From the NCBI RefSeq assembly GCF_044324875.1, contig NZ_CP172185.1: a stretch of 64,000 nucleotides of DNA; one strand, 5' to 3'. The notes under the pieces were generated by a model that saw only the letters and a program-made list of their open reading frames with translations, searched no databases and was not told where the DNA came from. Below, piece by piece: positions 48,387 through 53,191 of the stretch. The stretch comes from Escherichia coli (lineage in GTDB: Bacteria > Pseudomonadota > Gammaproteobacteria > Enterobacterales > Enterobacteriaceae). The translations under genes were made by a program, and so were the position numbers. The number at the start of each line of letters is the position of its first letter. The first letter of the stretch is position 1.

Positions 48387-51254
48387 TTAAAAGCTGAATC
48401 GATATCCTCCGTTGACTTGCTTCTGATCAAAGAGGTTACCCTGCGTGTAATCCGCTTCGAGATAGAATGTGTGCTGTTTGTTATACTGTGCACTGACTCC
48501 CACGCCGTTATTCCAGCCATTACCTTTGAAACTGTACTTCTCCCGGGAGTTGTTCAACAGATATTCGGTATCCCCTGAAAACTCGCGGATAGCGCCAGTC
48601 TTCACATAGACATTCAGCTGGCTGTTGCCTGCGGTGATGTCATATCCCAGTATCATGCTGGCACGCCCCAGCAGCGATTCGTAGTGATTCAGATGTATAT
48701 TGAGGCCATTACTCGCCTTCATAGCCATCTCATTCTGGTGGCTGTATGTGAGCTGGGTTTGCGGCTCTATATAGAACCCATAACCAGTAGGGGTCAGGTT
48801 GAACCTCTGCCCGGCTTCCAGGGCGATACTCATTCCATTCGCAGTGCCGTTGGCATTAACGCCGTTGTTCTGACTGTCCAGTACGTGGAAACTATTTTTC
48901 TGGCGTGATGCTTTTACAACGAGATCGCTGTAAAAACCGCTGTGTGCCATGTAACTGGCGTACATTCCCATGTAGTCTGAACGTGCGGTACCGTCGCCTC
49001 CGCTATAGTCCGGCGATGCATGTGTTGAGCCAATATACAGACCGACATACAACGGCATTTCATCAGAGAGACGTTTATCCCCACCAAACTGGATACCGCT
49101 GTAACCCATGTCAAAGCCGCTCAGTTTGCCACTGGCAAAGGAGTCCAGGCTTCCCCCATAACTGCGCAACCAGATATTACCGTCTTTACTCTGATTTCGC
49201 AGGTCACCCATCCGTTGCATCAGCGTACGGTTTTCAACATAGTTCAATAAGTAACCGACATTGAGATAATTGCCGCCAGCATCTGCAGTCGTGGTGGGTT
49301 TAGGCGTGGGAGCGGGGGCAGGCGTAGGATCGGGGTTGACTATGGGAGGCTGAGCGGGAGCTGGTGTGGGTTCAGGATTAGGAGTCGGTTCCGGAACTGT
49401 CCCGGAAGCGTAAAGCTCCCAGTTAGTGCCATTTTTACGCACATCGTACAGATATCCCCCCAACTCAACCTGAGAAGACGCGCTGAACGAGGCCGCACCG
49501 TCAGTGGTTTTTACCACTGTCAGAACTTCATTTCCCGTTGTGGCCTCGCTGCCCTGGTTGCGGATAGCCAATACGTGATTACCAGCACTACTCCCGCTGA
49601 TATTCAATAAATCCCCTTTATTATTAACGCCATTACCCTCGCCAACAACATCAGCACGCATAATAAAGGTACTGTTACCGCTCAGGTTCTCTACGTTTAA
49701 TGTGGTAAATGTGCCGGCAGTTGACCCGTGGCTGGCAAAATCGACAGTTGAATGGCTCAGCGCCAGCGTGTCGAGATTAGAATTACTTGTTACGTTCCAG
49801 ACGCTGTTATTCATTGCAACGTCCAGTTTCCCGCCATTGACATTATCGCTGAGGGAAGAACCTGTCCAAACCGACCCAGGGTGCATATCCAGATTGATTA
49901 GCCCACCTTTGGAAAGAACGCTACCGTTGATAAGCATACGACCCGAGGCGTTGATGCGGCTGGCGGCATAACCATCGTCATGTTGCGTTGCGATGGCCAT
50001 CTGGTCGGGTGTACTCATATCAATGACCAGATCGCTCGTGAGGTCGATCTGGCTGTTGGTCATGGCATAAATTCCCCTGGCTCCTGCCGCGCCGGTGATA
50101 GCCAAACTGTCTCCGGTTATTCTACCGCCGCTGAGCGCCCACAAACCCAGCGCCAGACTGCCATTACGATCAACCGTAATATCGGTATTTTGCATGTTGA
50201 CAACAGCCGTTGCCGTCTGGGCTGAGGCACCATAAGAACCGCTGGAAAAGATGCTGTTTCGTTGCGCTGCCGTGCCAGAAAAATTGATTGTCGCGTCTGA
50301 ACCACTGGTTACGAGGCCACCGCCCTGCGCGGAAGAAATATGGCTATCAGCACCGATAGTGGTTGTACCACCACGAACTTCGACGCCATTTGCCGCGGCT
50401 CCAGTTACATCAACAGTGAGTGCATTCGCGCTCACCTGGCCAAAGCTCCAGAGGCCGTGTGCATTATCGCCATTGGTTTTAATGGTACTGTTTGTTCCGA
50501 GATCGACAACAGAGTTTTTCTGTACGTTTATCCCCATGGCGCTGTAGCCCTGAACATCGATTGTCAGGTCTGTCGCCGTAAAACGCGCAGCACCATTGGC
50601 GTTATTGCCGTTGAGACCACCGATATAAACACCTGTACTTCCATCGGTCTTGATTTTACTTCCGCTTCCAAGATCGACACTGGTGCCATAGTCATTGATT
50701 GTTAGGCCTATACCGTTCGAGTTTTCAATGGTGAATTGAGTGGCTGTTAGTGTTGAGCTATGTCTAATAATGATGCCGTCATCGTTACTCTTAATGGTGC
50801 TGCCTGTGCCTAAGTCAGCATGGGTATAGTCACCAATTAAATTAATGCCGATGGCAGAGGTTTGACCAACAACATCTACTGTAAGTCGGTTAGCTGTCAG
50901 GGAGCTGTTCTTGCCCTGAATAATGATTCCCTTTGCATATCCAGAGGCGTCGTTGACATTGACGGTGACATCATTACCCAGGTTGATATTGCCAGGCGTG
51001 TTTCCTGCTGGGGTCATTACACCATAGAGGTTTCCTGATGGATCGGCGGTATCTCCTGTAATTCTGTCACCATCATTAATAGTAATATTGGTGCCATTTT
51101 GACTTCCTAAATCAGCAGCTATCAGCAGGGGGGAAAAGATAATTGCATTCAAACCAATAGCGCCATATTTTATCAGTTGAATGGAGGGCGAACGGATTTT
51201 TAATTCAGCGAGACGATCGGCTTTGGTATTCCCATTGTGTTGTTTGATGCCCAT
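48387..51254 (-). CDS. ycgV: autotransporter adhesin YcgV (955 aa), apparently intact
   Basis: Signal peptide, repetitive passenger, Pro-rich linker, C-terminal beta-barrel ending ...VNGGYRFSF. Confidence 0.85.
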   Translation of the reverse strand: MGIKQHNGNTKADRLAELKIRSPSIQLIKYGAIGLNAIIFSPLLIAADLGSQNGTNITINDGDRITGDTADPSGNLYGVMTPAGNTPGNINLGNDVTVNVNDASGYAKGIIIQGKNSSLTANRLTVDVVGQTSAIGINLIGDYTHADLGTGSTIKSNDDGIIIRHSSTLTATQFTIENSNGIGLTINDYGTSVDLGSGSKIKTDGSTGVYIGGLNGNNANGAARFTATDLTIDVQGYSAMGINVQKNSVVDLGTNSTIKTNGDNAHGLWSFGQVSANALTVDVTGAAANGVEVRGGTTTIGADSHISSAQGGGLVTSGSDATINFSGTAAQRNSIFSSGSYGASAQTATAVVNMQNTDITVDRNGSLALGLWALSGGRITGDSLAITGAAGARGIYAMTNSQIDLTSDLVIDMSTPDQMAIATQHDDGYAASRINASGRMLINGSVLSKGGLINLDMHPGSVWTGSSLSDNVNGGKLDVAMNNSVWNVTSNSNLDTLALSHSTVDFASHGSTAGTFTTLNVENLSGNSTFIMRADVVGEGNGVNNKGDLLNISGSSAGNHVLAIRNQGSEATTGNEVLTVVKTTDGAASFSASSQVELGGYLYDVRKNGTNWELYASGTVPEPTPNPEPTPAPAQPPIVNPDPTPAPAPTPKPTTTADAGGNYLNVGYLLNYVENRTLMQRMGDLRNQSKDGNIWLRSYGGSLDSFASGKLSGFDMGYSGIQFGGDKRLSDEMPLYVGLYIGSTHASPDYSGGDGTARSDYMGMYASYMAHSGFYSDLVVKASRQKNSFHVLDSQNNGVNANGTANGMSIALEAGQRFNLTPTGYGFYIEPQTQLTYSHQNEMAMKASNGLNIHLNHYESLLGRASMILGYDITAGNSQLNVYVKTGAIREFSGDTEYLLNNSREKYSFKGNGWNNGVGVSAQYNKQHTFYLEADYTQGNLFDQKQVNGGYRFSF

Positions 51255-52011
51255 ACCACTCCTATATAGTACCCAGGCTATGGGTCTATGGATTTTGTCA
51301 TTTTGTTTAAGTCAATGAATAATATCCTCTTATCATCATGATATTTGTATGGTGCTATCATGATGAGCTGCTCTGAGAATAATTCTCTATTACCGGGCAA
51401 AATCAGGAACACAGGAATTAATATATATTTAACATCCCCCTTACAAAGGTGAGTTTAGATCGAGTTATTCCCTAAGTTGTCGTTACTTATTCCAATTCGT
51501 TACAATGAATATGACAAAAACATTACAACAAACAGCGGTTAAATAATTTGGTGAATATTTTTGGTAATAATCCTAATTGGTTATGGGATTTTCGCTTGAT
51601 GTATCTGCATAACAAAAACAATATGAGCCATTTTTGCATTACTAATAAGAAAAAGCAAAAAACATCGATATTCATTTTTGATCAATGGATTTTCTGGCAT
51701 ATCGTTATTATCGTGATACTGGTTATCATTTTCATCTTGCCAGGATCGCACGTAATCACGTTATTCGGGGATTTTATCTGCGGGATATTACCCTTCAGGT
51801 AAGTCCTTTTCTCGCCAGCATATTGGAGCGTGATCAATATTGATCAGCTGTAAAAAGGTGTCTGATGTGCAGTGGAACACAAACTTACGTTATCTCATTG
51901 CTAATGAGATATCCCTCATCTGAACACTTATGTCTTTAATTATTCTCGTGGTTCACTATAGGCAATAAGCACAAAAGTGTAGGATGTTATAAGAATGGTT
52001 AGGACTCGGTG

Positions 52012-52053
52012 AAATGAAAAATCCACGCAATTGCGTGGATTTTATATACTTTT
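52012..52053. terminator. bidirectional rho-independent terminator downstream of ychF
   Basis: Perfect 20-bp palindrome atccacgcaattgcgtggat flanked by A-run and TTTTATATACTTTT. Confidence 0.7.
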
Positions 52054-52099
52054 GCGCTCTTCATGAGATTTAGCGAAACCTCTTGAGACAACAAATTAA

Positions 52100-53191
52100 T
52101 TAGACGTTGAACAGGAAGTTCATTACATCGCCATCTTTAACGATGTAATCTTTGCCTTCTGCACGCATTTTGCCTGCTTCTTTCGCGCCTTGTTCACCTT
52201 TGTAAGTGATGAAATCTTCAAACGAGATGGTTTGTGCACGGATAAAGCCTTTTTCAAAATCAGTATGGATTTTGCCAGCGGCCTGCGGCGCGGTTGCACC
52301 AACCGGAATGGTCCATGCACGTACTTCTTTCACCCCAGCGGTGAAGTAAGTTTGCAGGTTCAGCAGCTTATAACCGGCACGGATCACACGGTTCAGGCCC
52401 GGCTCTTCCAGCCCAAGCTCCTGCATAAACTCGTCACGTTCTTCGTCGTCCAGTTCGGCAATGTCTGCTTCAACAGCAGCACAAACCGGAACCACAACAG
52501 AACCTTCTTTCGCCGCGATTTCACGCACCTGGTCAAGATACGGGTTGTTTTCAAAACCGTCTTCGTTGACGTTGGCGATGTACATTGTTGGTTTCAGCGT
52601 CAGGAAGCTCAGGTAACGAATAGCCGCTTTCTCTTCAGCGCTTAAATCCAGCGCGCGCAGCATACCTGCGTTTTCCAGCTGCGGCAGGCATTTTTCCAGT
52701 ACCGCCAGCTCGGCTTTCGCGTCTTTATCGCCACCTTTGGCTTTCTTCTGTACGCGATGAATCGCACGTTCGCAGGTGTCGAGGTCTGCCAGCGCCAGTT
52801 CGGTGTTGATAACTTCAATATCATCCGCCGGGTTAACTTTGCCGGAAACGTGAATGATGTTGTCATTTTCAAAGCAGCGAACAACGTGACCGATCGCTTC
52901 AGTTTCACGGATGTTGGTCAGGAACTGGTTACCCAGACCTTCGCCTTTCGATGCGCCTTTTACCAGACCGGCGATATCGACAAATTCCATGGTCGTGGGA
53001 AGCGTACGCTGCGGTTTTACGATTTCAGCCAGTTGATCCAGGCGAGGGTCAGGCATTGGTACGACGCCTGTGTTCGGCTCGATGGTACAGAATGGAAAGT
53101 TGGCCGCTTCAATACCGGCTTTGGTCAGCGCGTTGAACAGGGTAGATTTCCCGACGTTGGGCAAACCGACGATACCGCATTTGAATCCCAT
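52100..53191 (-). CDS. ychF: ribosome-binding ATPase YchF (363 aa)
   Basis: G-motif GLPNVGKST; recognisable sequence. Confidence 0.95.

Follow-up and report, generated by a model that had tools for sequence, protein, structure and literature searches.

The 845-bp spacer between ycgV and ychF in the Escherichia coli window (the whole 64,000-nucleotide stretch of DNA analysed here) is most probably non-coding DNA through which the cryptic adhesin gene ycgV is controlled, its far end being occupied by the ychF terminator; we place the probability of this reading at roughly 85%. An 84-aa open reading frame within the spacer has the properties of a frame that arose by chance in T-rich sequence, and its sequence features and variation suggest that selection does not maintain it. 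As we discuss below, the composition of the spacer, the distribution of diversity among strains, and published binding data from K-12 and an avian pathogenic (APEC) strain bear on this assignment.

Results

Layout, composition, and distribution of the spacer

The spacer is bounded by two genes on the minus strand.

48387..51254, minus strand: ycgV, a 955-aa autotransporter adhesin gene (ORF list; annotated under this name in NC_000913.3 and PGAP genomes)
52100..53191, minus strand: ychF, a conserved ATPase gene (ORF list and annotation; positive control in the selection tests)

Between the start codon of ycgV (51254) and the stop codon of ychF (52100) lies a gap of 845 bp (51255..52099), close to the 850 bp or so given in a preliminary description of this sequence. 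GC content is 35.0% in the spacer versus 49.1% in the whole window and falls to 28% between 51500 and 51699, which bears out the earlier characterization of the gap as very AT-rich; the spacer is one of the eight lowest-GC clusters of the window.

Nearly every genome has one copy of the locus. Among 5,426 complete E. coli genomes, the spacer is without a match in 700 and only partially matched in 639, which leaves about 4,100 genomes with a full spacer; the whole region is deleted in strains HH45 and NT1N28. We considered a clean insertion of ycgV plus the spacer into an "empty site" and rejected it, because fragments of both ycgV and the proximal spacer survive in HH45, which thus carries a deletion rather than an ancestral empty site. 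The ycgV gene decays readily in many strains, and piN/piS over its first 200 codons is 0.27. A search of 100,044 species representatives with YcgV residues 1–350 found no relatives outside E. coli-derived contigs and returned two contigs only, evidently E. coli contamination, making comparison beyond E. coli impossible; this search covered one genome per species and required near-exact peptide words, which divergent orthologues could escape. A literature search for papers naming the ycgV–ychF intergenic region found none. An ancient tandem duplication of ~100 bp, suggested by two families of short direct repeats at spacings of 98 and 101 bp, was also rejected (global alignment z = 1.6 versus shuffles).

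The 84-aa frame: form, integrity, and selection

The frame itself and the segment whose deletion truncates it are as follows.

51548..51802, plus strand: 84-aa open reading frame with a TTG start and alternative ATG starts at 51599 (67 aa) and 51623 (59 aa); not regarded here as a gene
51739..51813: 75-bp segment between two GCCAG repeats, carried by the window and lost by deletion from K-12-type alleles (alignments)

First, the length of the frame is within chance: when the spacer was shuffled 2,000 times with its dinucleotide composition preserved, frames of at least 84 aa occurred in 11.8% of the shuffles and frames of at least 67 aa in 36%. The encoded peptide is as hydrophobic and Ile/Phe-rich as previously described (15 Ile, 10 Phe; I/F/L/V = 44%) and has a single strongly hydrophobic stretch at approximately residues 41–64, preceded by a KKKQK patch. 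This composition is attributable to the richness in T (37% overall), as T at codon position 2, found at 47% of these positions in the frame, gives Ile, Phe, Leu, and Val.

Second, we found no Shine-Dalgarno-like sequence within 25 nt of the starts at 51548, 51599, or 51623, and the CAI-like score of the frame (0.60) was no better than those of the other frames (0.50–0.70), so that codon usage, proposed earlier as a check, argues against a gene. The peptide had been said to lack a recognisable motif, and Pfam and NCBIfam indeed gave no match to it; for the five longest spacer ORFs on both strands, there was none even at E ≤ 1. Searches of 5.8 billion and 1.84 billion proteins found no homologues beyond E. 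coli/Shigella, and the matches obtained (85 and 13) were all variants of the same E. coli/Shigella locus. The frame is unannotated by PGAP and in the K-12 reference, window-type alleles included; pipelines of some submitters label the ATG-initiated frame a "hypothetical/membrane protein".

These searches also bear on the idea that an older gene once stood between ycgV and ychF and decayed into the present AT-rich stretch. The spacer is long by the standards of bacterial intergenic DNA and ycgV is itself prone to decay, but none of the five longest frames matches a Pfam or NCBIfam family, the 84-aa frame has no relatives beyond the locus, and no intact gene is annotated there in any genome inspected. 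A decayed gene is a highly improbable origin for the spacer.

Third, the frame is frequently broken. Codon 11 is TAG in nine of 12 distinct alleles, which interrupts the 84-aa frame, and a 55-mer representing the window-type sequence around this codon occurs in 115 of the 5,426 genomes. The 75-bp deletion removes the 3' end of the frame (about the last 20–21 codons, 65–84, and the stop codon), and its 49-mer junction is found in 1,991 of the 5,426 genomes. Other disrupted versions are L005, which has a TGA, L009, which is frameshifted, and alleles that have lost the stop codon. Conservation across strains, which the preliminary description had offered as a means of deciding the matter, thus also argues against a gene. 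The ATG-initiated frame (67 or 59 aa) is open in nine of 12 distinct alleles; at ~4% divergence, an open ATG frame in most alleles is expected without selection, and this observation neither supports nor excludes translation.

Finally, variation within the frame has the pattern of non-coding DNA. The piN/piS ratio was 0.66 (0.91 for the N-terminal part), inside the range of 0.35–1.43 for the five other frames, and was 0.01 for ychF. Seven of ~34 point changes were synonymous (21%; neutral expectation 19%) and two were nonsense (6%; expected 4%). Nucleotide diversity (pi) was 0.039 in the frame, 0.040 in the distal spacer, and 0.014 in ychF. The synonymous bias that would have marked a real gene was not seen, and a small membrane protein encoded by the 84-aa frame, the alternative kept by the preliminary description, appears unlikely from these comparisons.

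Could the frame nevertheless be a genuine, selected gene for a small inner-membrane protein, in its 84-aa or its 67/59-aa ATG form, that annotation has missed? A hydrophobic stretch after a KKKQK patch is a topology typical of small membrane proteins, the ATG frame is open in most distinct alleles and called a membrane protein by some pipelines, and a promoter-like sequence, TTGTCG-18-TACAAT, lies just upstream at 51477..51506 (plus strand). By contrast, piN/piS values of 0.66–0.91 resemble those of non-coding frames and diversity equals that of neighbouring non-coding DNA; many alleles carry a nonsense codon, a frameshift, a lost stop codon, or the 75-bp deletion, and some strains have lost the region; and Shine-Dalgarno sequence, codon-usage signal, family match, and homologues outside E. 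coli/Shigella are all missing for a frame of chance length. We judge a selected gene to be very unlikely.

A young, lineage-restricted proto-gene, not yet selected and sometimes expressed when H-NS silencing lapses, would account for an orphan frame that is confined to E. coli/Shigella, open in most alleles, and set in AT-rich surroundings with plus-strand promoter-like sites, and neutral evolution is compatible with a translated, unselected ORF. However, its sequence-level predictions are the same as those of non-coding DNA, the starts lack a Shine-Dalgarno sequence, and the region is H-NS-bound in K-12 and belongs to a class reported to be transcriptionally almost silent (PMC3661553). A proto-gene is improbable. 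In a more specific form of this idea, to which we assign very little weight, the ATG frame (51599..51802, 59–67 aa) would encode a membrane peptide confined to E. coli/Shigella that arose de novo within an H-NS-silenced promoter island; its production would require relief of silencing, and its presence, length, and C-terminus would already vary across the species. Such a young peptide, if real, would show a gene in the course of being born, or else toxic "junk" kept harmless by silencing.

We also considered whether the frame could encode a hydrophobic peptide like a type I toxin, paired with an antisense RNA. In size, single predicted transmembrane stretch, and basic N-proximal patch, the peptide resembles the small hydrophobic proteins and type I toxins Ldr, Ibs, TisB, and ShoB, and there are antisense ORFs and a promoter-like site at 51735..51707 (minus strand). 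Unlike these families, the frame lacks purifying selection, a Shine-Dalgarno sequence, a partner RNA family, and paralogues, and is often disrupted: an Rfam scan of 50500–53000 with a permissive E-value brought no family to threshold, the locus is single-copy as noted above, and the peptide matches none of the known toxin families. A toxin is exceedingly unlikely on this evidence.

A catalogued promoter island in the AT-rich core

The AT-rich core of the spacer includes the counterpart of a known K-12 promoter island. Its position in the window was obtained by an indel-free alignment together with the U00096.2/U00096.3 offset, which we take to be 777 bp and which agrees with the NC_000913.3 annotation.

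~51412..51712: promoter island 1255333_301 (U00096.2 position 1255333, 301 bp; PMC3661553, Table 1); GC 28–31%

In that table, the row "1255333_301 ycgV(-)ychF(-)" is one of 78 K-12 islands listed; its H column carries the entry "A", for binding by H-NS in all studies compared (Grainger, Kahramanoglou, Oshima), and its column C marks ycgV as a foreign gene according to Nakamura et al. (PMC3661553). Promoter islands are defined with PlatProm as stretches of some 300 bp or longer in which predicted transcription start points are extremely dense, and as a class they are transcriptionally almost silent despite RNA polymerase binding (PMC3661553). This evidence comes from K-12, where the spacer is ~95% identical to that of the window and lacks 75 bp. 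It sustains the earlier suggestion that the spacer is a silenced promoter region, and the qualification that such regions are typical of autotransporter genes fits the same table, in which a promoter island is also listed upstream of yfaL, likewise a cryptic autotransporter gene (PMC3661553). For K-12, the status of the spacer as a promoter island and H-NS target is already known and catalogued. The island is tied to an accessory gene, as shown by the foreign flag on ycgV, the spacer's absence from 700 genomes, and its GC content of 35%.

Our scan for sigma-70 promoters found three promoter-like sites in the 845 bp, ~3 times the mean density in the window and compared with 4.7 ± 2.5 in composition-matched shuffles; with no excess over shuffles, the island is indistinguishable from plain AT-richness by this simple scan. 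The density of –10-like hexamers ranged from the 67th to the 98th percentile, depending on the 300-bp sub-window. A sigma-32 SELEX peak at 1255834 was set aside for low resolution and an uncertain coordinate system, as were a published sigma-54 site and a GalR site that lie inside or beyond ycgV.

The proximal control region and its inverted repeat

Next to ycgV, the spacer contains two features of likely regulatory character.

51255..51380, minus strand: proximal control region of ycgV (sequence, pi, and YbdO probe)
51333..51366: perfect 11-nt inverted repeat, TCATCATGATA-N12-TATCATGATGA, containing two ATCATGAT palindromes 22 bp apart

A Shine-Dalgarno sequence, AGGAG, is present at 51259..51263 (minus strand), 4 nt before the ycgV ATG. 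The proximal region is the most conserved part of the DNA upstream of ycgV, with pi values of 0.011–0.013 (51255–51354) versus 0.04–0.10 farther upstream. Read from conservation only, the DNA upstream of ycgV may divide into a promoter, a 5'-UTR, and an upstream silencer. In an APEC strain, YbdO shifted a 126-bp probe in electrophoretic mobility assays, and deletion of ybdO raised ycgV mRNA 4.1-fold (PMC11681634). The primers used there, ACCACTCCTATATAGTACCC and ATTCTCTGAGAAGCTCATCA, map to 51255 and 51380 in the window, and the probe thus corresponds exactly to 51255..51380 (PMC11681634).

The ATCATGAT cores of the inverted repeat are invariant in all 12 alleles, and the whole window has three ATCATGAT sites, two of them in the repeat. 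Only 4.5% of shuffles produced any inverted repeat whose arms reached 11 nt, and in the minus-strand RNA fold TCATCATGATA and TATCATGATGA form an 11-bp stem. These properties make the paired ATCATGAT repeat a candidate operator or 5'-UTR hairpin.

GATC sites in the spacer raise the question of a phase-variation switch of the Dam/OxyR type, like that preceding the ycgV relative agn43 (flu). The agn43 promoter has a cluster of three GATCs. Both genes belong to the same phylogenetic group of self-associating-type autotransporter adhesins, the window allele of the spacer has five GATCs, two of them, at 51832 and 51842, within a perfect 16-bp palindrome, TGATCAATATTGATCA, at 51831..51846, and a methylome study groups ycgV with genes having differentially methylated GATC sites. 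Only the palindromic pair is common to most alleles, however, and one of its members is lost in the O157:H7 allele; the palindrome is imperfect in K-12 and O157 alleles; the other three GATCs are each missing from five to seven of 12 alleles; and the conserved pair lies ~580 bp upstream of the ATG, away from the conserved proximal region. The ycgV spacer, whose sites vary among alleles and which has no conserved promoter cluster of three GATCs, is not a member of the agn43 type, and there is very little likelihood that it acts as such a switch.

The distal spacer and the ychF terminator

Toward ychF, a highly variable stretch precedes a highly conserved one.

51855..51904: most polymorphic stretch of the spacer, with small indels; pi 0.10
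52018..52043: intrinsic terminator hairpin of ychF (terminator scan, 11 pairs; RNA fold)

A hairpin at 51891..51911 is perfect solely in the window-type allele. Downstream of the ychF stop codon, the sequence has the hairpin and U-run of a rho-independent terminator; in the minus-strand fold, an 11-bp stem is followed by UUUUUCAUUUC (z = –4.3), and spacer diversity, taken over 50-bp stretches, is lowest at this element (pi 0.003). As T-rich sequence lies on both sides of the hairpin, the terminator is probably bidirectional and would also stop plus-strand transcripts leaving the spacer. Two Leu_leader matches in the Rfam scan (31 bits versus a gathering score of 50) were due to this hairpin, and an Rfam miRNA match was meaningless.

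In the scan of pi across the spacer, low diversity was confined to the proximal ~100 bp and the ychF terminator. Constraint thus sits where a regulatory role of the spacer predicts it.

Discussion

We propose that the spacer is organized around its AT-rich core (~51400–51850, 28–35% GC), whose composition would make it a promoter island that attracts RNA polymerase and, above all, H-NS. By coating the core, H-NS would keep ycgV and spacer-internal transcription off in ordinary conditions, an instance of xenogeneic silencing; H-NS binding would then be the cause of ycgV silencing, in the present strain as in K-12. Besides the conserved paired ATCATGAT repeat, the proximal ~125 bp contain the ribosome-binding site and, probably, the core promoter or 5'-UTR; this is the part to which the LysR-type repressor YbdO binds. 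The 84-aa ORF would be a T-rich by-product that selection does not maintain.

Much of this scheme has precedents. Among the promoter islands of K-12 described by Shavkunov, Panyukov, and Ozoline, the counterpart of ~51412..51712 is itself listed as AT-rich, H-NS-bound DNA beside a predicted foreign gene (PMC3661553); compared with that island, the window carries a minority allele, ~95% identical, with 75 extra bp just downstream. Like ycgV, H-NS-silenced cryptic adhesin genes (yfaL and its upstream region, chaperone-usher fimbriae) have a long AT-rich upstream region and H-NS occupancy, and comparable fimbrial operons are called cryptic in the literature. For ycgV, our literature search found no direct demonstration of de-repression by hns deletion, and the only regulator shown to bind its upstream region is YbdO, in an APEC strain (PMC11681634). 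The reported role of YcgV in adhesion and biofilm formation traces to Roux et al. (2005). The phenotype described by Roux and co-workers reportedly appeared on forced expression, and ycgV is said not to be expressed under laboratory conditions.

For annotation, these results favor recording the spacer as the regulatory region of ycgV, a promoter island and H-NS target, and not recording the 84-aa frame as a gene. Database entries that call this frame a hypothetical or membrane protein are most likely false positives of T-rich silenced DNA. The case also serves as a clean worked example of how a single population-scale comparison, here across 5,426 genomes, resolves the status of a doubtful small ORF. 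Beyond tidier annotation the finding matters little, as the spacer is of an ordinary and known silenced regulatory kind. The sole loose end of some biological value is the paired ATCATGAT repeat, which is a concrete candidate operator for the regulator or regulators of this cryptic adhesin.

The ycgV–ychF spacer contains the counterpart of a catalogued K-12 promoter island

In the window, a piece of E. coli chromosome, the ends of ycgV and ychF define an 845-bp spacer with a GC content of 35.0% (49.1% in the whole window) and a minimum of 28% at 51500-51699, bearing out the long AT-rich gap upstream of ycgV noted in the preliminary description. Eight low-GC clusters occur in the 64 kb, this spacer among them. 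Sigma-70 promoter-like sites in a simple scan of the spacer were not in excess of composition-matched shuffles.

Features of the spacer and its flanks
48387..51254, minus strand: ycgV, autotransporter adhesin, 955 aa
51255..52099: spacer (proximal, ycgV side; distal, ychF side)
51259..51263, minus strand: ycgV Shine-Dalgarno sequence, AGGAG, in the low-diversity proximal block
51333..51366: perfect 11-nt inverted repeat, TCATCATGATA-N12-TATCATGATGA, with two ATCATGAT palindromes 22 bp apart
~51412..51712: counterpart of K-12 island 1255333_301, placed by 777-bp offset and alignment
51548..51802, plus strand: 84-aa ORF
51599 and 51623: ATG starts of shorter frames of the ORF (67 and 59 aa)
51739..51813: 75-bp segment missing from K-12-type alleles, between two GCCAG repeats
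52018..52043: ychF terminator hairpin, T-rich on both sides
52100..53191, minus strand: ychF

The best explanation, to which we assign a probability of about 85%, is that the spacer is the H-NS-silenced control region of ycgV, with an AT-rich core and a conserved proximal control block. Panyukov and Ozoline (2013, PMC3661553) catalogued 78 K-12 promoter islands in U00096.2 coordinates, a class that binds RNA polymerase and H-NS, gives almost no productive transcripts, and adjoins horizontally acquired genes. One of the 78, "1255333_301 ycgV(-)ychF(-)", is marked as H-NS-bound in every ChIP study compared and as associated with a gene that Nakamura et al. predicted to be foreign; the table also has an entry for an island ahead of yfaL, likewise a cryptic autotransporter gene (PMC3661553). 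The alignment used to map 1255333_301 was indel-free up to 51738. The offset between U00096.2 and U00096.3, which we take to be 777 bp, is consistent with the K-12 coordinates of ycgV and ychF. The mapped island is the AT-richest core of the spacer and overlaps the ORF over its 5' two-thirds.

The ORF evolves as non-coding DNA

The plus-strand ORF is present exactly as first described, hydrophobic and rich in Ile (15) and Phe (10), with a TTG start and one strongly hydrophobic stretch. That it encodes a real small membrane protein is very unlikely, and a type I toxin is less probable still, as both proposals failed tests of coding signals, conservation, and selection.

First, the length of the ORF is no more than chance, as frames of at least 84 aa arose in 11.8% of 2,000 dinucleotide-preserving spacer shuffles and frames of at least 67 aa in 36%. 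T makes up 37% of the sequence and 47% of second codon positions, and a T-rich composition alone yields Ile, Phe, Leu, and Val. The DNA just upstream of the three candidate starts (51548, 51599, 51623) holds nothing resembling a Shine-Dalgarno sequence, and codon-usage scoring, proposed earlier as a check, gave no gene-like signal (CAI-like index 0.60, inside the 0.50-0.70 of other frames). Pfam and NCBIfam contained no family for the ORF or for the four other longest spacer ORFs. Homologue searches (word-indexed, 5.8 billion proteins; full HMMER scan, 1.84 billion representatives) returned only variants of the same locus, and all source-named matches were from E. coli or Shigella. That the spacer is the remnant of a decayed gene is highly improbable, homology support having been found in neither the family nor the protein databases. 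PGAP placed no annotation under the spacer match in any genome listed, including those with the allele type found in the window, and the curated K-12 record is empty between the two genes ycgV and ychF.

Second, the frame is not kept across strains, the comparison by which the preliminary description had proposed to judge it. Codon 11, TGG in the window, is TAG in nine of the 12 distinct spacer alleles that we read, and a window-type 55-mer centred on this codon, built so that the SNP destroys the megablast seed, matched in only 115 genomes. The 75-bp deletion removes the final 21 codons and stop, and its junction sequence is present in 1,991 genomes. The shorter ATG-initiated frames carry TGG to TGA at codon 47 in one allele (L005) and a 1-bp deletion in another (L009); among database variants, some have lost the stop (TAA to CAA, +17 codons) and many have frameshifted tails, part of which may be assembly errors; and the ORF region is wholly deleted in strains HH45 and NT1N28. 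All comparisons are within one species, at ~4% divergence, because a scan across species turned up ycgV relatives only on E. coli-derived contigs; at this divergence, chance persistence of an open 67-codon frame in most alleles is expected. Two contigs filed as an Actinomycetes MAG and a Nocardioides malaquae assembly (L019, JAEWQO010000123.1; L020, NZ_JADCSA010000422.1; one 270 bp, coverage 0.76) encode YcgV at 98-100% identity and are almost certainly E. coli contamination.

Third, the ORF showed no synonymous bias, another check proposed earlier, and its piN/piS fell within the range of the other frames.

Nucleotide diversity (pi) and ratio of nonsynonymous to synonymous diversity (piN/piS)
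ORF, whole: pi 0.039; piN/piS 0.66
ORF, part common with K-12: piN/piS 0.91
Other five frames, same DNA: piN/piS 0.35-1.43
Distal spacer: pi 0.040
Proximal spacer: pi 0.023
ychF: pi 0.014; piN/piS 0.01
ycgV 5' part: pi 0.015; piN/piS 0.27

Synonymous changes were ~7 of 34 point changes (21%, compared to the 19% expected were every change equally likely), and two were nonsense (6%, compared to 4%). Such a pattern is what neutral evolution of non-coding DNA leaves. An unselected proto-gene, translated now and then, is an unlikely reading of the ORF.

Conserved and variable parts of the spacer

The spacer matched in 4,726 of 5,426 complete E. coli genomes, with coverage of at least 80% in 4,087, mostly at just 90-95% identity; the window's own allele is rare, and just 141 of 4,727 matching records reach 99% identity to it. 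The 50-bp bins with the least diversity were those of 51255-51354 (0.011-0.013) and of the terminator, 52005-52054 (0.003), and the most diverse was 51855-51904 (0.10). The spacer (51255..52099) is a recombination mosaic, with a window-like proximal part and K-12-like distal part (51850-51930 stretch) in alleles L004 and L016 and the opposite in L014 and L015; the region also gathers IS1 insertions and deletions.

In an APEC strain, LysR-type YbdO shifts a 126-bp probe and deletion of ybdO raises ycgV mRNA 4.1-fold (PMC11681634); the probe primers map to 51255..51380. Both ATCATGAT palindrome cores of the 51333..51366 repeat are unchanged in 12 of 12 alleles, and only 4.5% of shuffles held any inverted repeat whose arms reached 11 nt. 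The repeat could be an operator, as it lies inside the YbdO EMSA probe, or a 5'-UTR hairpin, as its arms pair into an 11-bp stem in the RNA fold.

A 16-bp palindrome with two Dam sites, TGATCAATATTGATCA, lies at 51831..51846, ~580 bp upstream of the ycgV start; it is perfect in the window but not in the K-12 and O157:H7 alleles. A Dam/OxyR switch like that of agn43 is not supported and highly improbable, as GATC sites differ between alleles and the sole widely shared pair is ~580 bp upstream.

At the distal end, the ychF terminator would also halt plus-strand transcripts from the spacer. Two sub-threshold Rfam Leu_leader matches at 51927..52085, one per strand (31 bits; gathering score 50), are both centred on this hairpin and are therefore artefacts of hairpin and U-run. 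Some E. coli carry a genomic island that directly abuts the ychF 3' end (L003, 3702..5091, beginning with a tyrosine integrase; L013, 1900..3204, with a TerB-domain gene). In L013 homology to the window is lost at ~52112, and in L003 it is regained, at only 87.5% identity, at ~52011, which suggests an attachment site formed by the final 13 nt of ychF and the terminator (52011..52112).

A model for silencing of ycgV

In the H-NS-silenced control region that we favour, the AT-rich core would serve as a platform for H-NS nucleation and spreading, and H-NS there would silence both ycgV and spurious initiation inside the spacer. Specific control would come from the proximal ~125 bp, a conserved stretch with the ribosome-binding site, the segment bound by YbdO and its paired palindromes, and probably a promoter or 5'-UTR. 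The rest drifts and recombines freely. Published work on other strains established the H-NS binding, the island status, and the YbdO binding; that these bring about silencing in this strain is our inference.

ycgV is often inactivated elsewhere, by frameshift (L007), IS1 truncation (L010), near-complete deletion (L011), or splitting (L012), and is truncated or fragmented, possibly by assembly errors, in L017 and L018. Its piN/piS of 0.27 is in keeping with weak selection on a gene that is silent most of the time. The adhesion and biofilm role of YcgV was reportedly seen on forced expression, the gene being silent in laboratory conditions. The locus is listed as an H-NS-bound island in K-12, and its ORF evolves as if neutral and is broken in many strains, which supports the original preference for a silenced promoter region over a real gene. 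The reported adhesion and biofilm role itself goes back to Roux et al. (2005). The spacer is an element of an already described kind, at a locus itself catalogued, and annotation of the ORF as a gene is not warranted.
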